Assembly (NCBI GenBank): GCA_041665545.1
Contig: JBAYIQ010000001.1
Location: 222,448 to 286,447, forward strand
Reading direction: 5' to 3'
DNA: 64,000 nt
Origin: Patescibacteria group bacterium
GTDB taxonomy: Bacteria; Patescibacteriota; Patescibacteriia; UBA1558; GWA2-36-10
Part shown: one piece after another, positions 11,474 to 31,670 of the stretch
Layout of the letters: every line of letters begins with the position of its first letter
How positions within the stretch are numbered: the stretch's first letter is position 1
Program-made: the position numbers and the translations under genes
The notes under the pieces: model-generated
Databases searched by the model: none
What the model was told of the DNA's origin: nothing
Seen by the model: only the letters and a program-made list of their open reading frames with translations

Positions 11474-13126
11474 TTAAACAACGTCCCAAGTGTCACGAAT
11501 CAACCGCTTAGCTTCTTTCTCAGCTTTCGCTAAGTAAGACGCTAAACTTGTCTGCCTGACAAGGCCACCTTCTGATATCAGATAGGTTTCAGTACTCTTG
11601 AATCTTTCCAAGAAATAGCGATCATGGGAAACCAAGATCACTGTCCCTTGGTAGTGCTGGACTACCTCCTCCAAGGCATCCAGTGCTTCCAAATCAAGGT
11701 GATTGGTGGGCTCATCAAGCAACAAAACATTTACCGACAGACTGGAAAAAATTGCCAATAGCAGTCTAGCCCTACCACCGGGCGACAGATCAGCAACTTT
11801 CTTATCAAGCTCCTCTGCCTGAAAACCATATCTGACTGCTAGAGCATAAGCATCTTGCCTTGCCAATTTGCCCCGCTTCATCAAACAGTCCTTCATGCTA
11901 TCAGTACGCGGCAAATTATCGTGCTCTTGCATCAGATTACCCATGACTAGAGAGGTGCCCAAGACAACAGAACCAGCAAGCGGAATCAATTGTCCGCTTA
12001 TGGTTTTGAGCAAAGTGGACTTACCTGAGCCATTCGGACCAATTATCGCCAATCGACTGCCATATGGCACAAACAAAGAAACTGGTCCAATGCTGAAGCC
12101 CTGGCTATAGCCAGCCACTACTTCATTGAGCGCGATATCTCGCGTTCCACCGGGCTTTTGGGGCTCAAGCTCGATGCGAAACATTTCTCGCTCCACTGGC
12201 TTGGCCACAGAATCCATGTGCTCAATCCGCTTCTCAATGGCTTTGGCGGTTTTGCCAGAACCAGCTGAACGATCTCGTTTGAAGCCTCGCAAGTACTTGT
12301 CATTGTCTTTGCCTCGATAACACGCGCCTTGCGTGGCCTCAACGCGCTTGGCTCTAGCTGACTCAGTCAACCTCCTTATTTCCTCCTGTTGCGCCATGAA
12401 GACTTCCAACTGATGCTCTCGTTCTTTGCCCGCTCTAGCCAGATACTCTGAGTACAGGCCATTGGTTATGGTCAACTGACGAGTATACCAGTCAATCTCC
12501 ATGATCTTGTGCACCACACGATCAAGAAAAAGACGGTCATGCGAGACAACTAAGCAAATGGCTTTGGACTTGGTAAGGAAATGCTCGAGCCAGATCAAAG
12601 CTGGTAAATCAAGATTGTTGGTTGGCTCATCCAACAAAAGCAAGTCAGCGTCAGCCAGCAGTACTCCGGCCATAAACACTTTACTTTTCTGCCCAGCAGA
12701 CAAGGTGTTTATCGGTCGATCACCAGCGAGCAGACGAAGACCAAGGCCAGCCAAGACTAGCTCCAGGCGGTGCTGGAAACCATAGCCATTTCTTCGCTCG
12801 TACTCAACTTGCGCATCCGAAGATGAGTCCAAACATTGCTCCAATGAAGCCATGCCCGAGACTCTGTGCAGATACTGCTCTACGGTCTCCTCAGAAACCA
12901 AGCTGGTGTCCTGAGGCAGATAAGCAAAAACTAGCCCCTTTCTTTTTTTGACAGTACCGCTGTCTGGCTCCACAACTCCGGCTAATATTTTTAGCAGAGT
13001 TGATTTGCCAGTGCCGTTGTTACCCACCAAGGCGACTTTTTGCCCCCTTTCCAAAGAAAAAGAAACATTGTCTAGAACCGTAATCGTGCCGAACACTTTG
13101 CTAACTTTTTCAACCTTGAGTTCCAT
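11474..13126 (-). CDS. ABC-F family ATPase with two ABC domains and no transmembrane domain
   Basis: 550 aa. Two Walker A sites (GNNGTGKST and GPNGSGKST) and two LSGGQ-like signatures (LSAGQKSK, LSPGGRARL). The gene is visibly more GC-rich (about 45-50%) than its neighbours. Confidence 0.85.
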   Translation of the reverse strand: MELKVEKVSKVFGTITVLDNVSFSLERGQKVALVGNNGTGKSTLLKILAGVVEPDSGTVKKRKGLVFAYLPQDTSLVSEETVEQYLHRVSGMASLEQCLDSSSDAQVEYERRNGYGFQHRLELVLAGLGLRLLAGDRPINTLSAGQKSKVFMAGVLLADADLLLLDEPTNNLDLPALIWLEHFLTKSKAICLVVSHDRLFLDRVVHKIMEIDWYTRQLTITNGLYSEYLARAGKEREHQLEVFMAQQEEIRRLTESARAKRVEATQGACYRGKDNDKYLRGFKRDRSAGSGKTAKAIEKRIEHMDSVAKPVEREMFRIELEPQKPGGTRDIALNEVVAGYSQGFSIGPVSLFVPYGSRLAIIGPNGSGKSTLLKTISGQLIPLAGSVVLGTSLVMGNLMQEHDNLPRTDSMKDCLMKRGKLARQDAYALAVRYGFQAEELDKKVADLSPGGRARLLLAIFSSLSVNVLLLDEPTNHLDLEALDALEEVVQHYQGTVILVSHDRYFLERFKSTETYLISEGGLVRQTSLASYLAKAEKEAKRLIRDTWDVV

Positions 13127-14366: not shown

Positions 14367-15044
14367 TTACTTTGCTAAACAAATTGGTGTAGATAAATAT
14401 TCTAATATATTAATTTTACTATACTTCAGTGAAAATTGATCTATTGAACACACGGCGATTTCAGTTTTTCCATCTAACTCAAAATATTTCACGAACCATT
14501 TTTTAGATTTTTCTCTATAGCCAATCTTAATGTTATTTTTTATTCTAACAACATTAACCTCCTTTAGCGAAATATTTAGACCACATCCTATTGCCTTACA
14601 GTAACTTTCTTTAGCAGTCCATAATTTGCATAAAGACAATTTTGTATCAACCTTACTAAAATAGTCCCGATCCGATACAAAAATAGATTTAGTTTTTGTA
14701 TTTATTCTTTCTATCTCTTCTATATCTGCTCCAACAAGATCTTCGCCCAAAACAAGAACTCCGTATTTGTCATTATGTGAAAAATTAAAATAATACCCCT
14801 TCTGTTTTCTGAAGAATGGTTTTCCAAATTCATTGGTTATTATTTCATCATTGTCATATCTTAATCTATAATTTTTATACATAAATTCTCTGAGTAAAAA
14901 ATCGTCAATAATAGCTGTGCATTTTTCTTTATAAGTCCACTTTTGTAAAATACTCTTTTTTGAATAGTCTGAAGTATAATTCAAAAGATTTCTGTAAATA
15001 TCTGATGGGATGTTTACTTTTTCGTATAGATATAAATAAACCAT
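14367..15044 (-). CDS. 4'-phosphopantetheinyl transferase, Sfp type
   Basis: 225 aa with PPTase motifs FNFSHNDKYGVLVLG...GADIEEI and WTAKESYCKAIG. Confidence 0.7.
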   Translation of the reverse strand: MVYLYLYEKVNIPSDIYRNLLNYTSDYSKKSILQKWTYKEKCTAIIDDFLLREFMYKNYRLRYDNDEIITNEFGKPFFRKQKGYYFNFSHNDKYGVLVLGEDLVGADIEEIERINTKTKSIFVSDRDYFSKVDTKLSLCKLWTAKESYCKAIGCGLNISLKEVNVVRIKNNIKIGYREKSKKWFVKYFELDGKTEIAVCSIDQFSLKYSKINILEYLSTPICLAK

Positions 15045-15090
15045 AATTACGTGGGGCTATAATATTATTTTAAAAACCAACCAATCGTCT

Positions 15091-15711
15091 TTATGTATGT
15101 TTTGTATTATTTAAAAGAATGAACCTAACTAAATTATTAAATATTTCCATTCCTTCATTTTGAGGACTTATATTTTCTGGGTGAAATTGAAAGCCAAATT
15201 GTTGTTTTCCTTGAACTTGGATAATTTCACAACCATCAATAGAACTAGCCAGGCAAACAAGAGTTTCTGGAATTTCTTGAACCCCAAATCGATGTTTTTC
15301 TGAGACAGTATAATCATTTTTATTTTGAAAAATTGAATGTCTGGCTTTGGCTGTAATTTTTACCAAACCTTCTCGTTTCTGAGATAATTTAACTAATTTA
15401 GCACCATAAGCATAACATAAAACTTGAAACCCATAGCAAATACCAATCACCGGAATAGAGGTATTACGAATGAGTTCAATCTCATCGATGTTTTCCGAAG
15501 CATTTAAAGAATGACCATCTGATAAAATAATTAATTGACAATCATTAAGGTCACAATTTTTTATATCTTGAAACATAATGTTTCTAACTTTATATCCAGT
15601 TAACAAAGTAACGTATTCGCTTAGCGAATCTGCGCCGTTATCAATCAATGCTACATTTACCGAAGCGATATTCCTTTCTGTTGTATTATAATTTTCTATC
15701 ACTTGTCTCAT
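15091..15711 (-). CDS. Class I glutamine amidotransferase, stand-alone (PabA/TrpG-like fold)
   Basis: 206 aa. Catalytic triad context GICYGFQ (Cys) and FQFHPE (His, Glu). Confidence 0.65.
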   Translation of the reverse strand: MRQVIENYNTTERNIASVNVALIDNGADSLSEYVTLLTGYKVRNIMFQDIKNCDLNDCQLIILSDGHSLNASENIDEIELIRNTSIPVIGICYGFQVLCYAYGAKLVKLSQKREGLVKITAKARHSIFQNKNDYTVSEKHRFGVQEIPETLVCLASSIDGCEIIQVQGKQQFGFQFHPENISPQNEGMEIFNNLVRFILLNNTKHT

Positions 15712-15713
15712 AA

Positions 15714-16625
15714 TTATATTAAATTATTAAATAATATTGAAAATTTTTCTACGCATCCTGGATTAAATATTGAAAAATGATCTCCCTTAATAGGATGAAT
15801 CTTTATGGGATGTTCTGAATATAAATTCCACTCATACTTTCGTTTAACGGGGCTATCATTCGCCTCGAAAAAATGAATATCAGCATTGACCTTACGTGCA
15901 GGCATATAAAATGCCTGAGCATTTGCATCTGTCCTCATAACATTCAAATAGTAAATCAGATCGCGAAAACTAATATTATCAAAATATGGAATTGCCTTAG
16001 CCCTGTCTTCGGGAATATCCTGCTTAATAACCTCCATCAAAGCACTTTGATATTTAGACATACCAAACATTTCAACAAAAATCTTCCACATATGTTCTTT
16101 ATTGTAACATAATTCATTGTTTATATTAGTAGACTTGATTTGTGATAACCACTTATGAATTAATATTTTTTCTGTCCCCAAATCAAAGCGTGACTTTTTA
16201 TTTGGATTTTTATTCGGTTCAAGTAATGCATAATCATTAACCATGTTTATCATCTGTTTGTCATCAATAATTGGTGGCGCAGAATTAATTATCGACAAAA
16301 AATCAATTTTTTCACCAATTGATTCAAGTTGTAATGCAATTTCAAATGCCCTCACCCCTCCAAAACACCAACCTGCCAATAAATATGGCCCACAGGATTG
16401 AATTTTTTTAATTTGCTTCAAATAAGATCTTGCCATTGACGAAATAGATCTATTTTTAGGAGAAAAATCATTAAACCTATCGGCTCTTAACCCCCAACAA
16501 TTTATTTCCGATGAAAAAGATGAGCAAAACAAAACATAATGCTGAATTTCACCATTTCCTGCGTGAATTAAAAATAAATTTTTATTTGAATTCGTTCCCT
16601 TTTTGAGAAAAACGACATTATTCAT
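15714..16625 (-). CDS. Type II thioesterase-like alpha/beta hydrolase with a Cys in the nucleophile position (GWCFGG instead of GxSxG)
   Basis: 303 aa. The pattern LFLIHAGNGE ... GPYLLAGWCFGGVRAFEIALQLESIG matches the thioesterase-domain consensus GPYxLxGxSxGGxxAxExAxxLE, but with Cys replacing Ser. Confidence 0.65.
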   Translation of the reverse strand: MNNVVFLKKGTNSNKNLFLIHAGNGEIQHYVLFCSSFSSEINCWGLRADRFNDFSPKNRSISSMARSYLKQIKKIQSCGPYLLAGWCFGGVRAFEIALQLESIGEKIDFLSIINSAPPIIDDKQMINMVNDYALLEPNKNPNKKSRFDLGTEKILIHKWLSQIKSTNINNELCYNKEHMWKIFVEMFGMSKYQSALMEVIKQDIPEDRAKAIPYFDNISFRDLIYYLNVMRTDANAQAFYMPARKVNADIHFFEANDSPVKRKYEWNLYSEHPIKIHPIKGDHFSIFNPGCVEKFSILFNNLI

Positions 16626-16626
16626 T

Positions 16627-18456
16627 TTATTTTTGGTTTTTAATTATATACTCAGCTTGTTTTTCTATTGTAGGTAAGTTTATAATATCATTAATGGCGA
16701 CATCAATCTTGAATTTATTTTGTAATTCTAAAGCCAATGAAGTCAACAATAATGAATTTCCGCCCACCTTGCTAAATTCTGTCTTAGTACCACAAACATC
16801 AATATTTAACAATTTTTTCCAAATTTTTACTATATTACGCTCTACTGCATTCTTTGGTTTAACATTTTTTTCTTCTCCAAAATTAGGTTTAAAGGTATCC
16901 ACAATAAATTTTCGATCAATCTTTCCAGTGGCGGTTAATGGCACGCTGTCAAGTTGATAAAAATAAGTTGGAATCATATAAGACGGTAATGTTTTTAGCA
17001 AATATTCTTTTATTAAATCTGAACTTACAGATTTATTACCCTTAGTAGTATAGTAAGCAATAATTTGAGATTCTTTTTCTTCGTGTATAATCGGCATCAC
17101 AACACTCTTATCAATAAAATAAAAATTATCTATTACGGATTCAATTTCATTCAATTCTATTCTATACCCTTTAATTTTAATTTGAAAATCATTCCTTCCC
17201 AGAAATTCAATCGGCCCACCAACCATTTTCCTACCCAAATCTCCTGTCTTAAATACTCTGCCTCGCTTCGTCACTGGATCAGTTATAAATACCGCATTAG
17301 TCTTTTCTTGCTGATTTAAATAACCTAACGCAAGATAATCGCTCTTATAAACTAACTCGCCAATTTCACCATTTTTGACCTCCCGACCATTATTATCCAA
17401 AAGATACACTTTGGTATCTTCTACCGGATAACCAACGGGAACGGTAGCCTGATTTATTTTGGTGGTTTTATCAATAAAGTACTGCAGAGTAACTGTGGAT
17501 TCAGTTGGCCCCAATCCATTAATAAAAACGCAGTTATCATTGAAATGCAATTTATAAGCTTCAACATCATTTATTAAAACTGACTCTCCTCCCATTACCA
17601 CCAACCGGACACTATCCATTAAATTTTTTTCCTTTATATTGCTAATAAAATAACGATATAAGGTTGGAACTGAGTGAAAAATAGTTATTTTTTCTTTTCC
17701 AATCCAAGCGGTTAATTTTTCGACTGCACCTAATTCCTTCATGTCGTAAGGATACAATGTTGCCCCATTTAATAAGGCACCAAAGATATCCATAATAGAT
17801 GCATCAAAACCATATGTTGAGAATAAGGTAAGTTTATCAAAGGGACTAATTTCTAGATTATTAGTATACGTACGGATAAAATGTAAAACATTGCGGTGAT
17901 TTTGAATAACACCCTTTGGTTTTCCTGTTGATCCTGAAGTATATAATATATAAGCACATTGAGAAGGGTCTATCATTATCCCTAAATTTTTCGCTTCTTC
18001 CTCATTATCAAGTTCATCCACATTAATGATAAAAACCCGCTTATTTGGCAAATCAATCGTGAGACTTTTGGCTAAATTATAGTTAAGATTATTGGTCAAA
18101 ATAATATCCCCACCTGAATCAGAAACTATATACTCAAGTCGATCTAACGGATGAGCAGGATCAAGAGGAACATAAGCATTCCCTGATTTAAGAACAGCTA
18201 TAATTGCAATAATCATTTGAAAATCATGTTCGAATAATAAATATACTCGCTGAGAAATTCCTTCTTTATTGTACTTTAATATTTGATTGGCAACTATATT
18301 CGCTTTATTATTAAGCTCTTGATAAGAAAGGACACGAGTCTTAGTTACTATAGCATTCTTAATTGAAAAATCGGCAACCTGATTTTCAAATCGGGTTACT
18401 ATGGATTGATTTATTTCTTCTTTAGGAAATTGATTATTATTCTTATTTATTTTCAT
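16627..18456 (-). CDS. Stand-alone NRPS-like adenylation plus peptidyl-carrier (A-T) didomain protein
   Basis: 609 aa. Adenylation motifs A3 YTSGSTGKPKGV, A4 FDAS, A5 NGLGPTESTV, A7 FKTGDLG and A8 GRNDFQIKIKGYRIELNEIE, plus a C-terminal carrier motif FSKVGGNSLLLTSL (phosphopantetheine-binding Ser). Confidence 0.85.
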   Translation of the reverse strand: MKINKNNNQFPKEEINQSIVTRFENQVADFSIKNAIVTKTRVLSYQELNNKANIVANQILKYNKEGISQRVYLLFEHDFQMIIAIIAVLKSGNAYVPLDPAHPLDRLEYIVSDSGGDIILTNNLNYNLAKSLTIDLPNKRVFIINVDELDNEEEAKNLGIMIDPSQCAYILYTSGSTGKPKGVIQNHRNVLHFIRTYTNNLEISPFDKLTLFSTYGFDASIMDIFGALLNGATLYPYDMKELGAVEKLTAWIGKEKITIFHSVPTLYRYFISNIKEKNLMDSVRLVVMGGESVLINDVEAYKLHFNDNCVFINGLGPTESTVTLQYFIDKTTKINQATVPVGYPVEDTKVYLLDNNGREVKNGEIGELVYKSDYLALGYLNQQEKTNAVFITDPVTKRGRVFKTGDLGRKMVGGPIEFLGRNDFQIKIKGYRIELNEIESVIDNFYFIDKSVVMPIIHEEKESQIIAYYTTKGNKSVSSDLIKEYLLKTLPSYMIPTYFYQLDSVPLTATGKIDRKFIVDTFKPNFGEEKNVKPKNAVERNIVKIWKKLLNIDVCGTKTEFSKVGGNSLLLTSLALELQNKFKIDVAINDIINLPTIEKQAEYIIKNQK

Positions 18457-18740
18457 AGTTTACTCAGTTTCTAGAATCTAGCTTAATAGCACTGTTAACT
18501 AGTTGATTAAAAACTTGGTGGGTATTTTTAAAAACTCAGAACTTATCTGATTAACCCGCTGGTATTTTCATTAGCACCTCGTCCCCAGGGGCTTCTTAAA
18601 TAAGTAAAATAAACCCTGGCTCTTGTTGATATTAATAAACGGTTTGTTTTGAGCCATTGCTCTACCTTGAAGTTCCATGAGATTATCATACAGCCGTCTA
18701 TATGATTATAGCCGTCTATTTACACACTTTCATTATAGAC

Positions 18741-18768
18741 CAAACAAAAAAGCTGTCAAGAGACAGCT
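18741..18768 (-). terminator. Rho-independent terminator for the histidine kinase gene
   Basis: Stem agctgtc/gacagct (18751-18768) with a 4-nt loop. On the minus strand it is followed by tttttgtttg. Confidence 0.5.
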
Positions 18769-18794
18769 AAAAATCACTAAATTTTTTCTTTTAG

Positions 18795-21605
18795 CTAAGA
18801 CTGCATTTCTTCTTTATTCGGCTCACCGCCACTGACTGGTATCACAAACTGGAAAATACTCCCCTTTTCTTTGCCAGCACTCTCTACCCATATTTGACCA
18901 CCATGCTCTTTGATAATCTTCTGAGCGATGAATAAGCCCAAACCAGAACCACCAGTGTGAATCTGCGCCGCGCCACTAGCGCGCACAAATTTTCTAAATA
19001 AATTTTTGGCTTCCTCGGGGTCTATACCAATACCAGTATCTTGCACTTGGAAATGAAAATTTTCACCTTCAATAAAAGCGCTAACTTCAATCTGCCCTTT
19101 GGGCGTATATTTTATGGAATTATCAATCAAGTTCAAAATCACTTCGCGCAATTTATCAGAATCAGCGGCCACCAATGGCAAGGCCGGCTTTGATTTTTTG
19201 TAAATCAACTTCACGCCTTTTTTGTCTGACTCATTGTGTAGCTCGGCAATGACACTATCAATCATGTCGCTAATCTGCAAGGGCTTTTTTTCTATTTTTA
19301 ATCTTCCGGACTCAATGCGCGACACATTCAAAAATATATTGACCAAGCGAGCCAAGCGAGCGGCGCTTTCAAATAAATCTTTGATTACTTTGCCAACTTT
19401 TGGCGTTACCGGCCCAAAATCTCCATCAGAAATCATAGACAAGTAGCCCTTAAGCGCTGAAATTGGTGTGCGCAACTGGTGAGAAGCAATGGACAAAAAC
19501 TCTGATTTGGCTTGATCCAACTCGCGCAAGCGCATATTAGCAATTTGCAAATCTTGATTGGTTGTTTGTAAATTATTATATAAGCGCAAGTTTCTGGACA
19601 CAATGCCCACTTGGCTGGTCAGAGCCGTCATGGTGTCTAAATCCAGTGAAGTCACTTTTGATTTTTCTACAGCCAACAAAAAATGAATAATACCAATTAT
19701 TTTATCTTCCGAAAAAATTGGAAAGCCAACTATTGCTTTGACCCCCAAGGCCTCCTGCACTTTATCCATGACCAACTTATCAACTGGAGGTGAAAAGAAA
19801 TCCGACATTTTGTCAGAATCATTTCTTGTTCCGGATAATACTGTCTTGACGCCCAAAGAATAGCCCGCCTCTAATTTGGCTTCAAACTTTTTGGGATCCT
19901 GCCCCAAAATTTGCGTCACTAGTTTAGTCTGTTCACTCTCTGTGATTGCCCCAATACGTAAAACATTGGTTCGCTCATCCACAAAGCTCAAAACACCACC
20001 TACATAGCCAAACTCAGAATAAATACTGTTAGCAATCATTTGATTAATCTGCTTGAGGTCCATGGTGCGACCTACTTTATTGGTCACGGCCTGCATGGCT
20101 GTCAAAAACTTATTGCGTTGTTCTAGACCTACATTTGCTATTTTTAAACTTTTTGTCTTAGCATCAACCTTGACTTGCAAGTCACGCTTTTGTAACTGAA
20201 CTTCTTCGTAGAGTTTGGACTTCTCAATTGCTGTGGCAATTTGGGGAGTCAAAATTTTCAAAAAATTAATGTCGTCTTGACTGTAAAGATCGCCAGAGCT
20301 TTTTGCAGAAAAAAATAACATTGAAGTTAAACTCCCATCTTCTCCAGAAACGGGAACTATCATCTCTATTTTTAAATTTTCTGCCTCTTGAATAAAATTA
20401 CCTAAAATTTTATAATAAGGAACTTCTGAGCTTATATTACTATGGTCTCTTATTAATTCCTCAACGATAATAAGTTCCTTTTTATTTATGATAAATTGAA
20501 TAAAATTTATATTAAACTTTGGAGGGGCACTATCTAGTTGAGAGCTGGCTATTAATATCCATTCCCCATTTTTTAATATTAATGACGAAATTAATCTAAT
20601 TTTTAACTGATCAGACAACAAATTGACTAAAGCCAATGAAAATTTAGCCAAATCAATCTCTTTGGCAACTACCGAACTAGCTTTCTGAAGTAACTTCTGA
20701 TAATCTACCCTGTTCTTATAAAATATACGGTCGGTCAAACGAGCAAAAATACTCTTCAAGGGGTCAAGAGTCAAGACGATAACTAAAGAAGTTACAACAA
20801 AAATTATTGCATTGCCGGACTGGTTTTCTCTGCTCAAGTATGTTCCTGATAAAAAAACCACCATTGCAAAAAATGATGCAAACAAAGCTACCAAAATTCC
20901 GTATAAAACACTTCTAATCAAAACTAAACGAATGTCCATTAATCTGTACTTAACAATCGCATATGTGGTAAATCCTACCATGAAGATAGTTAAAACTTGC
21001 CCAGACCAATTAATTGTGAAAATGCCAAACCAAGGTAACAATAAATTAGATATAAAAGCTAAATTGCTGGATAGTAAATAACCAGAAAAAACATATTTTA
21101 CCTGCAATTTTTTTAACCCCTCAAGTTTTTTAATCTTACTATTAAGATTATAAAAAGCTTGAAAAAAGTGGTAGAAAAAATAAACTACATACAAAATATA
21201 CAACTTACCAAAATATATAATGTTTTCACCGTCAACAACTGTTTTAGCACTAAATATAATTCTATCCGTAAAAAGAATCATACCGTTTATAAGTATAAAA
21301 AAAACGGATACAAATATTATGTATTTCGGGTTAAGTTTCCCGCCCTCTGGAAAAACGATTGAAAAAAACAAAAAAGCTGGTGATGTAAACGTCGCAAACA
21401 CATACAATAGTTTGCATAAAAAAACTATATTAGCTTGATCAGAAAGTCTATACAATATCATCCCTGTACCCCAAAATATAATAGCTACAATAACAAATAA
21501 ATAACTTCTATTTACGGATGCATGTTTATTATTTTTATATATAAAATAACCTAATAATATATTAAGGATAAGTACAACTAAAATGATTATATTAATGTAA
21601 TCCAT
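18795..21605 (-). CDS. Sensor histidine kinase with N-terminal multi-TM (HisKA_7TM-like) domain, GAF-like region, HisKA and HATPase_c
   Basis: 936 aa. N-terminus is multi-pass. H-box EFLSIASHQLRTPISALKGY. C-terminal ATPase G-boxes (GIGIDPEE, GGSGLGLFIAQKI). Confidence 0.8.
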   Translation of the reverse strand: MDYINIIILVVLILNILLGYFIYKNNKHASVNRSYLFVIVAIIFWGTGMILYRLSDQANIVFLCKLLYVFATFTSPAFLFFSIVFPEGGKLNPKYIIFVSVFFILINGMILFTDRIIFSAKTVVDGENIIYFGKLYILYVVYFFYHFFQAFYNLNSKIKKLEGLKKLQVKYVFSGYLLSSNLAFISNLLLPWFGIFTINWSGQVLTIFMVGFTTYAIVKYRLMDIRLVLIRSVLYGILVALFASFFAMVVFLSGTYLSRENQSGNAIIFVVTSLVIVLTLDPLKSIFARLTDRIFYKNRVDYQKLLQKASSVVAKEIDLAKFSLALVNLLSDQLKIRLISSLILKNGEWILIASSQLDSAPPKFNINFIQFIINKKELIIVEELIRDHSNISSEVPYYKILGNFIQEAENLKIEMIVPVSGEDGSLTSMLFFSAKSSGDLYSQDDINFLKILTPQIATAIEKSKLYEEVQLQKRDLQVKVDAKTKSLKIANVGLEQRNKFLTAMQAVTNKVGRTMDLKQINQMIANSIYSEFGYVGGVLSFVDERTNVLRIGAITESEQTKLVTQILGQDPKKFEAKLEAGYSLGVKTVLSGTRNDSDKMSDFFSPPVDKLVMDKVQEALGVKAIVGFPIFSEDKIIGIIHFLLAVEKSKVTSLDLDTMTALTSQVGIVSRNLRLYNNLQTTNQDLQIANMRLRELDQAKSEFLSIASHQLRTPISALKGYLSMISDGDFGPVTPKVGKVIKDLFESAARLARLVNIFLNVSRIESGRLKIEKKPLQISDMIDSVIAELHNESDKKGVKLIYKKSKPALPLVAADSDKLREVILNLIDNSIKYTPKGQIEVSAFIEGENFHFQVQDTGIGIDPEEAKNLFRKFVRASGAAQIHTGGSGLGLFIAQKIIKEHGGQIWVESAGKEKGSIFQFVIPVSGGEPNKEEMQS

Positions 21606-21609
21606 TTGA

Positions 21610-22713
21610 CTAAGATAAAATATATTTTAAATAATCATCACTAATTGGTCTACCGAAAGATCTAAATCGTGCCGGTTCTATGCCAATGACATTCGCCATT
21701 TTTTTTATCCTAATAATTTGTTCCTTATTTGTATCGCCTATTGTGGTGCAATTACTATCTAATGCGGCAAGCGTTATTAATTCTCCCATACAGCTAAATA
21801 TATCCCCATCATCTGTTAACCCTAAATCAAAATTATATTTAATATTTTTATAATTACAAACACCACCCTCTATAACCAATGTCCGATGATTTTTAGAATT
21901 AATTTTTTTTGATGCATTTAGTGGTTGTGCATCATCTATAATAATTGTCCCCTCCTTCAACATGTTGCTAGATTGTATTATAGAGTAAGGTGCGTTTGTG
22001 GCTGTAATAATTATATCGGCTTTTTTTATAATATCTAATGAGCTACTATAACTTAAAATTTTTTCCGACGATAAATTAAATTTACTTTTTAATTTTTCCA
22101 TATCTTTGTCAACCAAAATAAACTTTTTAAAATGGTCAGTTAAGACTGCATAACATGAGGAGCCAATTGAACCCGCGGCCCCAACAATACCAATTGTTAA
22201 TTCTTTGCTAGTCAAATTTTTCATTCTTATTGCATTATTTGAAACCACCCATGCCGTGTAAGAATGTCCCGTTGTTAATCTACAATTAATTTTATCTTTA
22301 ATATCTAAACCATTTCTAGTAAATGACGCACTCAGTGCTCCTAAACCAATGATCTTGGCTCCTAATTTTTCAGCAAACTTTGCTGCTTTAAGAATTTTTT
22401 TTGTGGCCAACTCTCTATTTTTAGTCATGTCCGAAGCATCCATTGGTGACCCAATAAACAAGCCCCTCTTTTCAATATTACTATATTTAAGGCCGTATAT
22501 GTAACTCAGTCTTATTGGAAATAAATATTTACCTATAAAACTTAATATTTTGTATGGAACTCGATTATTAAGCAAGGAAAATTTCCTATTGAGATCGTGA
22601 TAATCCCTAGAATGCACAATGAAAACATAGTCTGCAGAAATATTTAACTTTTTAACCAATTTAATTGAGATATTCTTTGGCAAAAAATTTATAAAAAAAT
22701 CAATCAACAACAT
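21610..22713 (-). CDS. Putative NAD(P)-binding oxidoreductase; family not resolved
   Basis: 367 aa with Rossmann-type glycine motif IGIVGAAGSIGSS in the central region. Confidence 0.35.
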   Translation of the reverse strand: MLLIDFFINFLPKNISIKLVKKLNISADYVFIVHSRDYHDLNRKFSLLNNRVPYKILSFIGKYLFPIRLSYIYGLKYSNIEKRGLFIGSPMDASDMTKNRELATKKILKAAKFAEKLGAKIIGLGALSASFTRNGLDIKDKINCRLTTGHSYTAWVVSNNAIRMKNLTSKELTIGIVGAAGSIGSSCYAVLTDHFKKFILVDKDMEKLKSKFNLSSEKILSYSSSLDIIKKADIIITATNAPYSIIQSSNMLKEGTIIIDDAQPLNASKKINSKNHRTLVIEGGVCNYKNIKYNFDLGLTDDGDIFSCMGELITLAALDSNCTTIGDTNKEQIIRIKKMANVIGIEPARFRSFGRPISDDYLKYILS

Positions 22714-22740
22714 AATCTTATATTTAATAAAATGTATTCG

Positions 22741-23613
22741 TTAATAATATTTAGTAACCTTTGCAATATGTGGCATTTCGGATTTAAATTTATTCTTTTT
22801 GTGCATTTCTAATACAGCGTCAACGATAAATAAGTTTTTATTTTCATTATTTCTTAAAAAGCCAAAACTAGTAATATCTTGTATTTGCTTAGCACTATAG
22901 CCCTGATCTTTCGCCTCAATTATTATTTCTGCTTCTAAATAACTAAAACCCAATTCATCTTCGTCTGTTTGATTTTTCCAGAGACCAGCGGTTGGTGCCT
23001 TACTTATAATATTATCTGGCACATTCATAAATGAAGCAATTTCTCTAACGTGCCGCTTTGACAAATCGCCAATCGGACTTATGTCAACCTGTCCATCTCC
23101 CCTTTTAGTAAAATAGCCCAAAGCATAATCCTCGTCCTTATTACCTGTTCCCAATATTAAACTATCTAGAGCGGCAGCATATCTAGACAAAATAATTGCC
23201 CTAATTTCGCTTGCAACATTACCTTTATCATAATTATTCCTAACAATACCCTTCAATAAACCACAAAAAGATTCAATTATTGATGATATATCAATGACTT
23301 TATAATCAATGGCTAATGTTTTAGCAATATTAATGCCAATTTTAGTATCATTAATATTGTTAGTACTAGAAGGCATTATTAATCCACACAAAGACAATTC
23401 TTTTTTACCATTTTTATATTTATAATCATCAAATGCTGCTTTTGCTAAATAAGCCACTGTCGTAGAGTCAACTCCACCACTCAAACCAATAACCCCGCCC
23501 TTTTTATTAGCATTTTTTATTTCATCTACTATAAAATTCTGTATCTCCTGAGCAACAATTGCCGTTTTAATTTTGGGCAATTTAATTTTTTTTTCTATCT
23601 TTTCTAAATTCAT
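22741..23613 (-). CDS. nadE: NH3-dependent NAD+ synthetase
   Basis: 290 aa with PP-loop GLSGGVDSTT. Size fits single-domain NadE. Confidence 0.7.
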   Translation of the reverse strand: MNLEKIEKKIKLPKIKTAIVAQEIQNFIVDEIKNANKKGGVIGLSGGVDSTTVAYLAKAAFDDYKYKNGKKELSLCGLIMPSSTNNINDTKIGINIAKTLAIDYKVIDISSIIESFCGLLKGIVRNNYDKGNVASEIRAIILSRYAAALDSLILGTGNKDEDYALGYFTKRGDGQVDISPIGDLSKRHVREIASFMNVPDNIISKAPTAGLWKNQTDEDELGFSYLEAEIIIEAKDQGYSAKQIQDITSFGFLRNNENKNLFIVDAVLEMHKKNKFKSEMPHIAKVTKYY

Positions 23614-23640
23614 ACTATATACAAAAAATAACCAATTTAT

Positions 23641-25362
23641 TTATACAATATACTTATTTAAAATATTCTTTCTTCTCAACTTCAACGTAATAGTCAACAT
23701 TCCATTCTCCACACTAAATTCCTCAGCAATTAACTTAAAACTACTAATTTTTTCATTTTTTGACAGATCTTTTAACGATTCGTCAATGATCTGTGTATAA
23801 AGATTTTTCACAGCGCTCAGCTCCAATACTTCTGGTAATTTAAACTCTATATTTGCCTGTTCACACCACTTTTTTAATTCAGCCATATCTGGAACAATAA
23901 AAGCTGACAAAGCTTTTTGCTTGTCGCCATAAACCATGCTTTGGCTAATATATTTGCTGGCGTTTAAGTCATACTCTATTGGCTCAGGAAAAATATTTTT
24001 GCCAGTTGACAACACTATCACATCTTTGGCTCGACCAATGATGGTCAAAAATCCATCATTATCAAAAAAACCCAAATCTCCAGTGCGTAGCCAAGCATCG
24101 GCGTCAAAAGCTTCCTGGCTCAATATTTCATTGTCATAATAACCAGACATCACATTATCGCCTTTGAGCAATATTTCTTTTTCCGATGACAACTTAATTT
24201 GATTGCAAACCAAAGGCAAACCCACTGTGCCAAATTTATAATTATCCGGATGATTGACCGCCACTATTGGCGAGGCCTCGGTCAAGCCATAGCCCTCAAT
24301 CAGCTTCAAGCCCAAGCTATCAAAAAATTTGGCAATAGCTGGATTGAGCGAAGCTCCACCGGAGATAGCCAAGCGTAATTTACCACCCAAAATACTCCTT
24401 ATTTTCTTAAGTACCAAATAGTCTAAAATCTGATACTGCCATTTTTCTATAAAATTAAGCTGTCTTTTTTTCTTGGCATCAACCAAATTTAAGGTGCGAT
24501 AAAATAATTTTTTTTTAAAATTACTACCGCTCTTGATTTGATCAAAAACTTTGGCGTATATTTTTTCAAATATTCTAGGTACACAAGGCAAAACAGTGGG
24601 CTGAACCAACTTAATATCATCAATCATGGTCTTGGCGCTCACTGCGTAATAAATACTACAACCCGTAAAAAGCGGGCTATAATAGCCAGCCATTCTTTCA
24701 AAAGCATGTGACAAGGGCAAAAAGGAAAAAAATTTATCACTTTCGTAGATTGGTACATTGCGTCGGGCTGATTGAGCATCGCTGACTAAATTCTTCTGCG
24801 AAAGCATCACACCTTTGGGGTCACCCGTAGTCCCAGAGGTATAGATAATAGTATGCAAATCATCTTCCTGAGAAATAGCTTCAATATCAACTAATTTACT
24901 CTTATCAAAAACTGGCCAAGGCAATACTCTTTTATCCTCAATGTCTTGTGTCAGACCAACTACATATATTTCTTTGAGTGGTAAAGATAAGATGTTATTT
25001 TTATATTTGGCAAACAATTCTTGATTAATCAATAAATATTTAGCACCAGAATGATTAACTATGGTTTCCAAATATTTTTCTGGATAAGTATAGTGCACGG
25101 GCACTAAAACTAAACCCAAAGTAGCCACGGCCAGATCGGCCATGACCCACTCCGCACTATTGGGCAACATGACGGCTATTTTTTCACCCCTCACATAGCC
25201 CTTTTTTTGCCAATATTCGGCCAACTGACTGCGCAAATTGTTGAGCTCTTGATAACTAATTGTTTGATACTGACCTTGAACCAAAAAACCCAAAGCCGGA
25301 CGCAGACCAAAATCGCGAACTACTTCCAGAAAATTAGCAATGATTGTGCTGGACATAGGCAA
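23641..25362 (-). CDS. Long-chain fatty acid--CoA ligase (AMP-binding family)
   Basis: 573 aa with AMP-binding motif YTSGTTGDPKGV and C-terminal ligase core. Confidence 0.8.
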   Translation of the reverse strand: MPMSSTIIANFLEVVRDFGLRPALGFLVQGQYQTISYQELNNLRSQLAEYWQKKGYVRGEKIAVMLPNSAEWVMADLAVATLGLVLVPVHYTYPEKYLETIVNHSGAKYLLINQELFAKYKNNILSLPLKEIYVVGLTQDIEDKRVLPWPVFDKSKLVDIEAISQEDDLHTIIYTSGTTGDPKGVMLSQKNLVSDAQSARRNVPIYESDKFFSFLPLSHAFERMAGYYSPLFTGCSIYYAVSAKTMIDDIKLVQPTVLPCVPRIFEKIYAKVFDQIKSGSNFKKKLFYRTLNLVDAKKKRQLNFIEKWQYQILDYLVLKKIRSILGGKLRLAISGGASLNPAIAKFFDSLGLKLIEGYGLTEASPIVAVNHPDNYKFGTVGLPLVCNQIKLSSEKEILLKGDNVMSGYYDNEILSQEAFDADAWLRTGDLGFFDNDGFLTIIGRAKDVIVLSTGKNIFPEPIEYDLNASKYISQSMVYGDKQKALSAFIVPDMAELKKWCEQANIEFKLPEVLELSAVKNLYTQIIDESLKDLSKNEKISSFKLIAEEFSVENGMLTITLKLRRKNILNKYIV

Positions 25363-28587: not shown

Positions 28588-29553
28588 TTATATTAGTTCG
28601 CCAATAAAATTCTGTTGGCCGATTTGCTCAAAAGAAGCAATCTTATCCTTGTTGGCCATGGCCCACATGGCCTTGGCCATGGCTGATTCAAAAGTGCAAG
28701 CTGTCATGATTATTGCTTCATCAGGACCGTGTACCTGAATAGGGTGATAAAGAAATACTGGAATTTTAGAATCTTTGATTTGTTTTATTTTGGCTGGCTC
28801 TAGTTTGTTTTGGTGATTGAGCTTGATAAACAAAGCATCATAATTATTCTGTTCAAAATTTGTTAGCCAAGTAAGGCCCGGTAAATCGTCAAAAACAAAA
28901 ATATTGGCTTTGATTTTATTGTAAATCTTTGGTTTTCCAGTGTGATAGCCAAGGCCAGATTTGACGCTAATACCAAAATCTACTCGACCCCAATAGTTAT
29001 CATCAATGCTAGCAAATAAATTTAAGCCCGTATCCTTGTCACAAGTGGCACGCACTCCCGGAATAAGCCGAGTGCCAAACATAATAGCTGGCGTAGGCAA
29101 ACTGTAATCCAACACTTGAAAAGCATTTATTAAATTGGAGCGCAAACCCAAATCGTTTTTTTGACCAACAATATTTTTGCTTAGCTCAGCTGTGCCACTA
29201 CGAATGGCTGAGGTCAAAACCACTGTCTTTTTTATATTCTGCAGTAAAAAACTTAAGGCGTTGGCCGTCATTAATAGCTGGTCTGAGCGCGAAACAACCA
29301 CAAAACCACTGCTAGAGTCCAAGCGTTCAGCAATCTGCTTGGCCATTTCTTGCCAATGTTCCGGTGTCAAAATACTGTCTTCTGGGGCAATAAAAATCGG
29401 CTCCACTTCGGCTAATAACCTAAGCTCGGGCATTTGCTTGAGCCAGATTTCAATATCATCAGGACTCTGGATAGTAAGCAACCTTTTGTTCTGATCAAGT
29501 AAAGCTGTGCCACCAGCCAACAACAAAGTAATTTTTTTTCTTACTTTAGTCAT
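28588..29553 (-). CDS. L-asparaginase/GatD-like family protein; probable start at the internal Met (MTKVRKK)
   Basis: Motif LLLAGGTAL resembles the asparaginase TGGT signature. The first 13 residues of the track ORF overlap the upstream gene. Confidence 0.45.
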   Translation of the reverse strand: MTKVRKKITLLLAGGTALLDQNKRLLTIQSPDDIEIWLKQMPELRLLAEVEPIFIAPEDSILTPEHWQEMAKQIAERLDSSSGFVVVSRSDQLLMTANALSFLLQNIKKTVVLTSAIRSGTAELSKNIVGQKNDLGLRSNLINAFQVLDYSLPTPAIMFGTRLIPGVRATCDKDTGLNLFASIDDNYWGRVDFGISVKSGLGYHTGKPKIYNKIKANIFVFDDLPGLTWLTNFEQNNYDALFIKLNHQNKLEPAKIKQIKDSKIPVFLYHPIQVHGPDEAIIMTACTFESAMAKAMWAMANKDKIASFEQIGQQNFIGELI

Positions 29554-30241
29554 TGATTTTTTCTTTAGGAGAAATAATAAAACCAAAAACAACTAGATTA
29601 ATAAATAGAGTAAATAATGGGCCCATGTGAATGGAAGTAAAATTATCTTTATACATGGAAAATAGATTAAAGTAACTACCAAAAGCAGTACCCATGATAA
29701 CTCCGAATAAAACCAAGCCGATTTGGGTTCTAAATATCCCGTCTGATTTTATATATTTATCGACTAGAAAATAGATTGCTGAAAAAATTACTAAAACCAT
29801 GAAAATAGTATATATTATATAACCAGCATTATTATAAGTTGCAAAATTTATTGATCCAATTCGGACGCTATCTACAAAATAATTGTAGCCAAATATAGTA
29901 TATATAATAATTAAAATACTAACAATATTTATTAACCATTTAAATAATTTATTTATTTGAATTTTTTTATAAGGAAAATAGAGAGAAAAGTAGAATAAAA
30001 AAACTATAACTAACCAGGCCATGGTGTATGGTAGACTAGAGAAAAATCTCAAAGCATCTTCGCTTAAGCTAATATTATAAAAAACTAAGCTAGCAGACCA
30101 GAGAAAAACAAAAAATGTCATCAAACTAAAATATAAATTTATTTTATTTTTTTGGCCACGAAAAAAAACAAACAAACTCATGCCTAAATTTGTCAAACCA
30201 GTAATTGATAAAATTAAATTTTGTGAGTCAGTTAAAATCAT
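29546..30241 (-). CDS. Stand-alone 7TM sensor-like membrane module, tandem paralog 1 of 3
   Basis: 231 aa multi-pass membrane protein sharing the N-terminal pattern (GL.NL.M.FFVF.RG..NKINLYF.L.TFF.F.W) and C-terminal ISPKEKI with the two neighbours and with the N-termini of 31671-33056 and the kinase at 18795-21605. Confidence 0.6.
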   Translation of the reverse strand: MILTDSQNLILSITGLTNLGMSLFVFFRGQKNKINLYFSLMTFFVFLWSASLVFYNISLSEDALRFFSSLPYTMAWLVIVFLFYFSLYFPYKKIQINKLFKWLINIVSILIIIYTIFGYNYFVDSVRIGSINFATYNNAGYIIYTIFMVLVIFSAIYFLVDKYIKSDGIFRTQIGLVLFGVIMGTAFGSYFNLFSMYKDNFTSIHMGPLFTLFINLVVFGFIISPKEKIND

Positions 30242-30245
30242 ATCT

Positions 30246-30944
30246 TTAATTACTTATTTTTTCTTTAGGGGAAATAACAAAAAACACAACTATGAAATTC
30301 ATTAAAACCGTAAAAATTGGGCCAAGCCAATCAAACCTATAATCATTAAAATATTCAATAAATAAATCAAAATAACTCCCAAATGCCAATCCAATAATAA
30401 TCGCAAACAACAACATTTTAATTTGCTGCTTTACCACGCCCTCTGCCAACTTATATTTTCTGAATAATTTACATAAAGCCCAAACTGCCACTATAACAAA
30501 ATAAACGGCATAAAGAAAAAATCCCGCCTCATTGTAATAAGAAATATACTCATAATTGCTATAGGCCCTAACCGTCTCCGTGATAAATCCCTTGGTATAA
30601 ATAAAAAATGATAAAATTATCGCCATCAATAAAATAAGAAAATGATAACTTTTTTTTAGTTTTTCAATTTGGTAGGGAAAGTGATGAACAAAATAAAATA
30701 AGGAAATAACAATTGCTAACGCGGAAACATAAGTGCTCCTAGCAAACAAACCAACCAAATTTATATCTGAAATCGAGCGTGAGATTAATAGTCCCAAACT
30801 CCAAGTAAAATTAAAAAAGGTCAGTAAACTAAAATATAAATTTATTTTATTTTTTATACCTCGTCTAAAAACAAAAAAAGTCATAAACAAATTAACCAGA
30901 GCAGCAATCAATAAAATAAAATTTTGAGTTGAAAAAATTATCAT
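30246..30944 (-). CDS. Stand-alone 7TM sensor-like membrane module, tandem paralog 2 of 3
   Basis: 232 aa. Same architecture and conserved termini as paralog 1. Confidence 0.6.
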   Translation of the reverse strand: MIIFSTQNFILLIAALVNLFMTFFVFRRGIKNKINLYFSLLTFFNFTWSLGLLISRSISDINLVGLFARSTYVSALAIVISLFYFVHHFPYQIEKLKKSYHFLILLMAIILSFFIYTKGFITETVRAYSNYEYISYYNEAGFFLYAVYFVIVAVWALCKLFRKYKLAEGVVKQQIKMLLFAIIIGLAFGSYFDLFIEYFNDYRFDWLGPIFTVLMNFIVVFFVISPKEKISN

Positions 30945-30948
30945 ATCT

Positions 30949-31644
30949 TTAATTACTTATTTTTTCTCTAGGGGAAATGATGAAATAAAATACTACCGCA
31001 TTCATAAACAAAGTGAACACCGGACCAAACCAAGCATAATGATAATTAGCAAAATAACAAAGTATCAAATCAAAGTAAGCGCCAAAAACCAAACCTATCA
31101 AAATAGCAATAAATAATATTAAAGTTTGTTTTTTGAAATAAATGTCTGGCATTTTAATTTTGCGATACAAGTTTAGTAGAGCTAACCCAGCCACAAAAAT
31201 AAAATAAACCCCATATAAAATATAAAACGGCTTGTTTACATACAGCGTGTATTCATTTCTGGCTAAATCTTTGGTAAAGCTCAATACAAACGCTCCTTTT
31301 GTATAAACGATTATTGATAAAATAAAGGCTGGGGCTAAAAGCACCAGATCATAAATTTTTTTATTTTTACTAGTTTGTAATGGAAAATATTTGGAAAAAA
31401 AGTAGAGCGACAAGGATATCCCCAAGGCAATGGGATAAGCCAAAAGTGCTCCGCCATAAAACCAAAAGTTAATATTTTCACCCATTCGAGCAATCAATAT
31501 TGTCATGGTCCACAGAAAATTAAAAAAAGTAAGCAGACCAAAATACAAGTTTATTTTATTATTAAAACCACGGCTAATAACCACAAAAAACATCATTAAA
31601 TTAACCAAGCCCGCAATCAATAACAATAAATTTTCTATACTCAT
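30949..31644 (-). CDS. Stand-alone 7TM sensor-like membrane module, tandem paralog 3 of 3
   Basis: 231 aa. Same architecture, ending ISPREKISN. Confidence 0.6.
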   Translation of the reverse strand: MSIENLLLLIAGLVNLMMFFVVISRGFNNKINLYFGLLTFFNFLWTMTILIARMGENINFWFYGGALLAYPIALGISLSLYFFSKYFPLQTSKNKKIYDLVLLAPAFILSIIVYTKGAFVLSFTKDLARNEYTLYVNKPFYILYGVYFIFVAGLALLNLYRKIKMPDIYFKKQTLILFIAILIGLVFGAYFDLILCYFANYHYAWFGPVFTLFMNAVVFYFIISPREKISN

Positions 31645-31670
31645 ATTTATTAATTAATATTGAAAAATAA

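Follow-up and report, generated by a model that had tools for sequence, protein, structure and literature searches.

Cys-nucleophile thioesterases (TEs) at the end of nonribosomal peptide synthetases (NRPSs) have been described in two types. In ObiF and SulM the triad Asp is located at position II, with Gly at position I in ObiF1 and a Q-C-N motif in SulM (PMC6668435, PMC11298585). These two enzymes form a beta-lactone and a beta-lactam; the Cys-TE of AB3403 keeps the Asp at position I and has no known function. With regard to terminal amides, the preprint on the terminal amidation domain (TAD) of carmabin/vatiamide-type NRPSs proposes that, after transthioesterification from carrier to Cys, ammonia attacks the Cys-thioester. 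As a possible source of the ammonia its authors named a glutaminase of the glutamine amidotransferase (GATase) kind, and they report finding none; they also note NAD synthetase genes beside some TAD clusters. In the present study, we analysed a 64,000-nucleotide stretch of DNA (the window; assembly GCA_041665545.1, contig JBAYIQ010000001.1, positions 222,448 to 286,447) from a 295.6-kb contig of the metagenome-assembled genome (MAG) of a 'Patescibacteria group bacterium'. On its minus strand, four genes with intact open reading frames (ORFs) make up a cassette of about 4.1 kb:

18456..16627, minus strand: adenylation-carrier (A-T) didomain gene, 609 aa
16625..15714, minus strand: TE gene, 303 aa
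15711..15091, minus strand: GATase gene, 206 aa
15044..14367, minus strand: phosphopantetheinyl transferase (PPTase) gene, 225 aa

From its sequence, the cassette is predicted to be a minimal module of the NRPS-like kind, with a split Cys-His-Asn TE and a glutaminase dedicated to it. The spacers are 1 nt between A-T and TE, 2 nt between TE and GATase and 46 nt between GATase and PPTase, and the four co-directional, nearly abutting genes of the original prediction are all present with the expected Pfam domains. We found the A-T/TE/GATase order in eight lineages of the candidate phyla radiation (CPR) type, namely the window and the loci L002, L003, L005/L043, L031-34/L042, L040, L044 and L045, in which the TE is 41-77% identical to that of the window. 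The L044 contig begins at the TE, so that only TE and GATase are visible there, and the A-T gene of L045 is cut by the contig end. Wherever the TE is intact and stand-alone and the sequence downstream of it can be read (8/8 lineages), the GATase gene comes directly next, the called genes being -16 to +7 nt apart, and the decayed copy in L004 shows the same gene order. The flanking genes vary by lineage, and the PPTase gene stands either before A-T or after GATase. No pairing of a class I glutaminase gene with a TE gene was found in the searchable literature.

The A-T protein matches Pfam AMP-binding (2.2e-67), AMP-binding_C and PP-binding (PF00550; 2.9e-10, 40.7 bits against a cutoff of 20.8). 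Its A domain passes the NCBIfam model of amino acid adenylation domains, TIGR01733 (357.8 bits, cutoff 317.4), every acyl-CoA ligase model scores it far under the respective cutoff, and in the PDB it is matched best by LgrA, TycA and GrsA rather than by acyl-CoA ligases. A grouping with acyl-CoA ligases, which the original prediction had named as the result that would count against an NRPS-type A domain, was not seen, and the NRPS assignment is upheld both by TIGR01733 and by the nearest solved relatives. Core motifs A2-A10 are present and are kept in the eight lineages. The carrier Ser is Ser568 in GGNSL (codon 16753-16755), the predicted site of phosphopantetheinylation, and GG[ND]SL is kept in all relatives. 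The enzyme proposed to modify it was taken for an Sfp-type PPTase, and this is borne out by an ACPS domain (PF01648; 2.1e-12, 47.5 bits against a cutoff of 25), by the motifs GADIE and WTAKESYCK and by its 225 aa, a size typical of two-lobed Sfp-type enzymes (~220-240 aa). The model of the N-terminal lobe, PF22624, reaches 22.4 bits, under its cutoff of 27, and an AusB-like equivalog match of 57 bits is likewise below cutoff.

The ten-residue specificity code, the extraction of which had been proposed with the original prediction, was read after the anchor of the GrsA numbering had been checked against PDB 1AMU. The window A domain has the code DAMHVGGVTK, in which Asp218 is the equivalent of Asp235, and Lys512 is the equivalent of Lys517. 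Because both of these equivalents are present, the substrate is probably an alpha-amino acid. Furthermore, DAMHVGGVTK or DAMHVMGVTK was found in every CPR-type lineage and in two fused A-T-TE relatives, and this near-invariance across lineages at 42-77% A-T identity points to a single conserved substrate. The exact codes DAMHV[G/M]GVTK are absent from the searchable literature, and the matches to known codes are partial and divergent.

Minimal A-T-TE enzymes in which the TE forms the product are known among the fungal and bacterial quinone and furanone synthetases and in indigoidine synthetase. The keto-acid-using enzymes of this kind have no Asp235 equivalent, and indigoidine synthetase has an Ox domain and a Gln code. 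The A domain of the cassette differs from the former in having the Asp235 equivalent, and no A-T-TE NRPS-like enzyme is known to be paired with a GATase.

DltA is also among the relatives of the A domain (292.8 bits), and this brings in a second account of the cassette, in which the Cys-TE would act as a transacylase in the manner of DltABCD. It would pass the aminoacyl group to a macromolecular acceptor, of the cell envelope or another, by way of an amine or hydroxyl group on lipid, peptidoglycan or glycopolymer. The preference of a thioester acyl-enzyme for transfer to amines would suit such a reaction, as would the dependence of CPR cells on surface interactions. In the L003 lineage only, genes of phosphonate biosynthesis (PEP mutase, TPP-dependent decarboxylase and aldehyde dehydrogenase, L003:3202-6606) lie immediately upstream of PPTase/A-T/TE/GATase, and their adjoining position can be counted in favour of surface transfer. 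However, the two DltA equivalog models are missed by far (292.8 against 476 and 280.8 against 559.85 bits), the partners DltB (MBOAT) and DltD are at none of the loci, and no membrane protein or transferase is conserved beside the cassette. In addition, no membrane anchor is predicted in the TE, and the GATase would be left without a role. We therefore regard aminoacyl transfer of the Dlt kind as unlikely.

The TE belongs to Pfam Thioesterase (PF00975; 7.8e-21, 75.8 bits), and its AlphaFold2 model (confidence, pLDDT, 89.8) has the usual fold of a type I TE; the helical lid is large and takes up about residues 120-240. Foldseek matches of the model include FASN-TE, AB3403, Pks13-TE and NocB, with template modelling (TM) scores of about 0.6. 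As had been noticed at first reading, the nucleophile elbow (GWCFGG) holds Cys in place of Ser; this residue, Cys87 (codon 16365-16367), is invariant in 13 homologues. By alignment rather than by model geometry, the triad is completed by His283 (15777-15779) and Asn114 (16284-16286). In the alignment Asn114 takes the place of the position-I Asp seen in AB3403 and NocB, so that a canonical Ser-His-Asp triad is not found, and the oxyanion loop reads HAGNGE.

A profile search of 1.84 billion representatives returned 582 relatives at E <= 1e-30, mostly C-terminal domains of synthetases of 900-6,000 aa. Of the 150 nearest representatives, 130 exceed 360 aa, and their TE is C-terminal. Since its relatives are mostly C-terminal synthetase domains, the stand-alone TE is probably a split-off terminal NRPS TE. 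An assignment as a type II (editing) TE was rejected in view of the fused A-T-TE relatives and of the grouping of the protein with terminal domains.

Among these 150 nearest representatives the active site occurs in two coherent states, with strong covariation of nucleophile, position I and oxyanion loop (TE clade proteins P0137-P0281). In 87 of them Ser goes with a position-I Asp and an HDG[TS]GE loop, and in 53 Cys goes with a position-I Asn and an HAG[SN]GE loop; the mixed pairs are rare (Cys with Asp in 7) or absent (Ser with Asn in none). Eight of the Cys/Asn members have Asn where the alignment puts the catalytic His. No description of the Cys/Asn/HAG clade was found in the literature, and the variant appears to be coherent, widespread, undescribed and distinct from both known types of Cys-TE.

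The best solved match to the TE profile is AB3403, a C-A-T-TE protein of A. baumannii with a starter condensation (C) domain (PDB 4ZXH/4ZXI; 84 bits). It shares the identical GWCFGG elbow with its Cys nucleophile; the synthetase has a single module, and its product is uncharacterised. AB3403 differs in having Asp at position I, an HPxGG-type loop and a fused C domain, whereas the CPR enzyme has Asn114 and HAGNGE and is a separate protein with no C domain and with a GATase partner. With ObiF and SulM the TE has in common the Cys nucleophile in a terminal NRPS TE and, presumably, a thioester acyl-enzyme that is resolved by a nucleophile other than water. It differs from them in its invariant position-I Asn, in a W-C-F motif and in position II (residues 250-260), which is not conserved. 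ObiF1 is not among the 35 sequence matches of the TE profile nor among the 50 listed Foldseek matches. The link of Cys-type TEs with beta-lactone chemistry is correct for ObiF and SulM, but the cassette TE lacks the defining features of that type, having Asn at position I and no conserved Asp at position II.

Other relatives are uncharacterised fused C-A-T-TE proteins of Firmicutes (L011-L018, metagenomic loci), which belong to the same TE clade (HAGNGE, GWCxGG, position-I Asn), are 28-37% identical over their full length and follow the same single-module logic. Unlike the CPR cassettes they are fused, carry a starter C domain, have variable codes and have no GATase, and they are without the CPR-type lid residues DR...AIP and R[ST]DAN.QA. 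In the CPR type, R92, D207-R208, R231, D233, N235 and Q237 are invariant; they are kept in the fused relatives that have no GATase and are not kept in the Firmicute C-A-T-TE proteins. Because the GATase-less fused relatives keep them, these residues would track a shared small substrate and not the docking of the GATase, and they suit a putative small charged aminoacyl substrate.

The call of a class I glutamine amidotransferase was confirmed by PF00117 (1.6e-26, 93.6 bits against a cutoff of 22.8) and by a complete triad of Cys92 (15436-15438), His177 and Glu179, invariant in 14 sequences including one lone copy. Its best solved relatives are the stand-alone archaeal glutaminases that form subunit A of GMP synthase (82 bits), followed by TrpG, PabA and CarA. 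It fails the equivalog model of GMP synthase subunit A, NF001975, with 78 bits against a cutoff of 198. As in the two-subunit GMP synthase (GuaAA plus GuaAB), to whose stand-alone GuaAA the GATase is most similar, and in class I amidotransferases generally, the logic proposed here is the amidation of an ATP-activated carboxyl-type group by glutamine-derived ammonia. The difference lies in the partner, which is an alpha/beta-hydrolase TE with a putative thioester intermediate and not an ATP-pyrophosphatase.

The GATase bears the NCBI name 'gamma-glutamyl-GABA hydrolase family', an automatic label, and Peptidase_C26 (PF07722) does match it in part (38.1 bits, above the cutoff of 20.5; residues 82-179 against profile positions 102-219). 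This match of 38 bits could be taken to mean that the GATase is a gamma-glutamyl transferase which replaces the C domain, a gamma-glutamyl group on Cys92 being captured by the carrier-bound alpha-amine and the TE freeing a gamma-Glu-X dipeptide. The Firmicute relatives of the TE would fit, having an N-terminal C domain (N-acylation) where the CPR loci have a GATase gene. Nevertheless, the nearest solved relatives of the GATase are ammonia donors and not C26 hydrolases, no structure of PuuD or of a gamma-glutamyl hydrolase (C26) matched it at E 1e-8, and its gene adjoins TE, not A-T. No class I GATase is known to act as a transferase to a carrier-bound amine, and we consider gamma-glutamyl transfer quite improbable.

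In the most far-reaching form of our preferred reading, the TE and the GuaAA-type glutaminase would make up a two-protein amidating release machine, in which ammonia from glutamine is channelled to the acyl-S-Cys and the carrier-bound thioester is turned directly into a primary amide. The cassette as a whole is best explained as a self-contained, single-module NRPS-like pathway that would make a small product from one specific alpha-amino acid. In this pathway the PPTase very probably primes the carrier domain at Ser568, and the A domain very probably activates a single alpha-amino acid as its adenylate and puts it on the carrier as a thioester; the stand-alone TE then very probably takes the aminoacyl group onto Cys87. 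The translationally coupled GATase, of the GuaA-subunit-A type, may then hydrolyse glutamine and hand the ammonia to the TE. Attack of this ammonia on the aminoacyl-S-Cys thioester would give an amino-acid alpha-amide, which would be isoglutamine-like if the substrate is Glu. Amidotransferases usually join an activated carboxyl group with ammonia derived from glutamine, and thioesters are the more susceptible to aminolysis; with a Cys thioester and a weakened His-Asn pair, the balance should shift from hydrolysis toward aminolysis. The strict TE-GATase synteny and the ammonia-donor type of the GATase speak for amide release, and the same chemistry has been proposed independently for TAD. We give this resolution of the aminoacyl-S-Cys thioester by GATase-derived ammonia, and with it the two-protein machine, a tentative probability of roughly 0.3. 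An amidated product is favoured, and aminoacylation of a lipid or cell-wall component, which the original prediction had also named, is a possible role.

Several observations weigh against amidating release. The partial code matches point to different amino acids, at 6/10 positions each to the published codes for Val/Hpg (DAMHLGCTFK), Arg/Har (DVESIGGVTK) and N-delta-modified Orn (DGEACGGVTK), so that no single substrate can be assigned from the code. No TE-GATase or A-T-GATase fusion was found in the 150 best representatives of the TE family. Two fused A-T-TE proteins, that of L070 (region 5186-8756) and P0137, of 912 and 907 aa, agree with the CPR cassettes in code and TE signature. The L070 gene is followed by an overlapping gene of the metallo-beta-lactamase fold, and no GATase or PPTase lies within 7 kb of it. 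Because fused L070 lacks a GATase, the TE can probably work without one. The Firmicute members of the Cys/Asn TE clade, with their C domain, likewise have no GATase. TE-GATase coupling is therefore not obligate. Finally, a free amino-acid amide has no evident biological use.

The GATase, too, may have a life of its own. The close GATase family comprises 15 clusters, on the same contigs as the TE family, and a wider search showed that lone GATases of ~190 aa are common in Patescibacteria, with 30-42% identity and no NRPS neighbours. In a neighbour-joining tree, based on about 190 residues and not robust in detail, all cassette-linked GATases fall in one clade, in which the lone copies L029, L035 and L037 are nested. 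Because lone copies persist in these three, the GATase probably has an activity of its own, which is a further point against amide release. It is also the starting point of a third account, in which a plain glutaminase is coupled to the cassette metabolically and not physically: it would make glutamate, a possible substrate of the A domain, or ammonia in general, and the TE alone would set the product. Such products could be a dipeptide or diketopiperazine formed by self-condensation, a lactam, lactone or imide formed by cyclisation of the side chain, or oligomers. The nesting of lone copies inside the cassette clade and the intact code and TE signature of the GATase-less L070 agree with this, and Cys-TEs are known catalysts of cyclisation. 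The code is also partly Glu-like, being identical at 7/10 positions to a Glu code. On the other hand, glutaminases of the GuaA-subunit-A and TrpG types are typically weak without their synthase partner, and the abutting or overlapping of GATase and TE in 8/8 lineages suggests more than a metabolic link. We regard an uncoupled glutaminase as rather unlikely.

If amidating release is true, class I amidotransferases would have a new type of partner, and there would be an answer to how thiotemplated pathways make terminal amides. A GATase next to a TE is the kind of ammonia donor that was sought and not found in the work on terminal amidation. More broadly, the Cys/Asn/HAG TEs, with 53 members in the nearest 150 representatives, would form a subclass adapted to aminolysis rather than hydrolysis, and the variant could predict the release chemistry in many orphan clusters. 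With four genes, one substrate and one release step, the cassette is small enough for direct biochemical testing.

The likeness to the TAD domain is limited to the proposed chemistry. TAD, at the end of an NRPS module, has an NAD-binding Rossmann fold similar to acyl-ACP reductase (AAR) with a catalytic Cys, whereas the TE is an alpha/beta-hydrolase, and the activity of TAD has not been reconstituted. A gene of the AAR/TAD superfamily does occur in the window (region 21610-25362, minus strand), 3 kb upstream of the cassette. Its product matches PDB 6JZU (46.7 bits) and 9E4X/9E4S (27 bits), and its IFSCMGE corresponds by eye to the catalytic-Cys motif of AAR. It stands directly after nadE (NAD synthetase of the ammonia type) and an AMP-binding gene similar to long-chain acyl-CoA ligases. 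We considered these three genes as parts of the cassette and rejected them, as the trio is beside no other cassette locus.

Universal conservation of the cassette, which the original prediction had named as the sign of a part in primary metabolism, is not found. A word-based search found only 16 clusters of the TE family in 5.8 billion proteins, and the family is small, patchy and often decayed; the cassette is accessory and does not belong to primary metabolism. In L005/L043 the A-T gene has a CAA-to-TAA nonsense codon. In L031-34/L042 a frameshift in a CCCCTTTT run, seen in 24 contigs from several samples, splits A-T into ORFs of 104 and 478 aa, and TE, GATase and PPTase stay intact. The disrupted A-T genes in these two groups could be pseudogenes, and the CCCCTTTT run in L031-L034/L042 could also be a slippery site. 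The syntenic L004 has lost A-T together with the initial 111 codons of TE, among them the Cys codon, and in L029/30 the GATase is the sole cassette gene kept. Some Patescibacteria, which are without most biosynthesis, thus maintain and often lose a thiotemplate module with its own PPTase and a strict code; the strict code and the dedicated module suggest that a particular small molecule is important for the way they live.

Directly upstream of the cassette lies a HisKA_7TM-GAF histidine kinase gene by Pfam (18795-21605), which agrees with the position given in the original prediction. The expression of the cassette was accordingly expected to be signal-controlled, and this part was not supported, as a terminator-like hairpin and the cassette's own promoter-like site separate the two and the adjacency is not conserved. 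The elements before the cassette are as follows:

18751..18768, minus strand: terminator-like hairpin, 7 bp stem then TTTTTGTTTG, just past the kinase stop and overlapping the -35 box
18732..18759, minus strand: promoter-like site, TTGACA-16 nt-TATAAT, 12/12 consensus, by pattern match only
18457..18731, minus strand: leader of ~270 nt with two TAGACGGCT direct repeats (18710-18718, 18692-18700)

A riboswitch or T-box in the leader was considered and rejected: the leader has no Rfam match near threshold, its predicted fold is not significant (z = -1.24), and other cassettes do not share it in their upstream sequence. Nor is there any enrichment of the TAGACGGCT repeat in the window. Part of the promoter/leader stretch is 91% identical to L004:3442-3510, which lies between ddl and a ksgA-like gene, and this identity points to a rearrangement at the cassette promoter. 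In L004 it is ddl that comes after the orthologous kinase, with what is left of the cassette 8 kb away. The ~7.7 kb between kinase and remnant (L004:2300-10000), absent at window 18457-18795, hold ddl, the ksgA-like gene, a carbamoyltransferase, PIG-L, GT2, queC and Vut_1.

An autoinducer-like circuit could be proposed, in which the adjacent kinase senses the product as a signal or else controls the cassette. Besides the position of the window cassette directly downstream of the kinase, the Firmicute members of the TE clade agree with this. In 13/13 loci (L011-L018, L047, L050, L051, L054 and L057, from Clostridia/Bacillota MAGs and metagenomes) C-A-T-TE is followed by a HisKA_7TM(-PAS) kinase. 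Where the gene downstream of that kinase was read or sized, it corresponds to a REC-DUF3369-HD-GYP regulator, by Pfam in L016 and as a size-matched ORF (490-531 aa) in L011-L015, L017 and L018. The Firmicute association is robust, but it is a different system from the CPR cassette. It may be a module of NRPS-product and cyclic di-GMP signalling, and no description of the C-A-T-TE/HisKA_7TM/HD-GYP arrangement was found in the literature.

For the CPR cassettes there is evidence against it. No 7TM protein is near the cassette at any other CPR-type locus, and a scan of ORFs of at least 120 aa between 7.8 and 48.6 kb gave no response regulator. The L004 layout and the terminator-like hairpin and promoter-like site described above also speak against a circuit. 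Furthermore, the window has four tandem HisKA_7TM (PF16927) genes at 29546-33056 (minus strand), which with the 18795-21605 kinase make five paralogues in 14 kb, a number that makes a chance adjacency more likely. A functional link of kinase and cassette as a conserved CPR feature was rejected on these grounds. The adjacency is lineage-specific and plausibly due to chance, and we hold the autoinducer-like circuit to be very improbable.

The tandem 7TM array consists of three stand-alone modules of ~231 aa, 35-48% mutually identical, and one protein of 461 aa; it has low GC and a strongly positive AT skew, and kinase-less 7TM modules in an array are unusual. An asparaginase-family gene (28588-29592, minus strand; N-terminal domain only by Pfam) adjoins the array and is a further ammonia-releasing enzyme in the neighbourhood.

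The scanned remainder of the window is mostly housekeeping (aminoacyl-tRNA synthetase genes, S2, EF-Ts, RF, GAPDH and FtsW/RodA). The cassette was said to be more AT-rich than average and hence acquired horizontally. The first statement is weakly true, the GC of the cassette genes (0.273-0.315) being 0.9-1.6 SD lower than the mean gene GC of 0.363 +/- 0.056, but it is not distinctive, as unrelated neighbours have GC as low. The compositional case for horizontal acquisition fails with it: since the cassette GC is within 1.6 SD of the mean and is not an outlier, composition does not point to a recent transfer. The gene that truly stands out from the region in composition encodes an ABC-F ATPase (11474-13126, minus strand); it has a GC of 0.483, +2.2 SD over the mean, is flanked by genes of GC 0.27-0.28 and is also kept in the syntenic relative L004. 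At the window start (1-9736, minus strand), an RHS/YD-repeat toxin-like gene of 2,730 aa with SpvB, TcdB_toxin_midN, Laminin_G_3 and TEN_YD-shell domains runs off the edge, so that only part of it is in the window. Together with the adjoining 396-aa TEN_YD-shell plus CHAP protein (8546-9736), it represents polymorphic-toxin-like equipment in a CPR genome.

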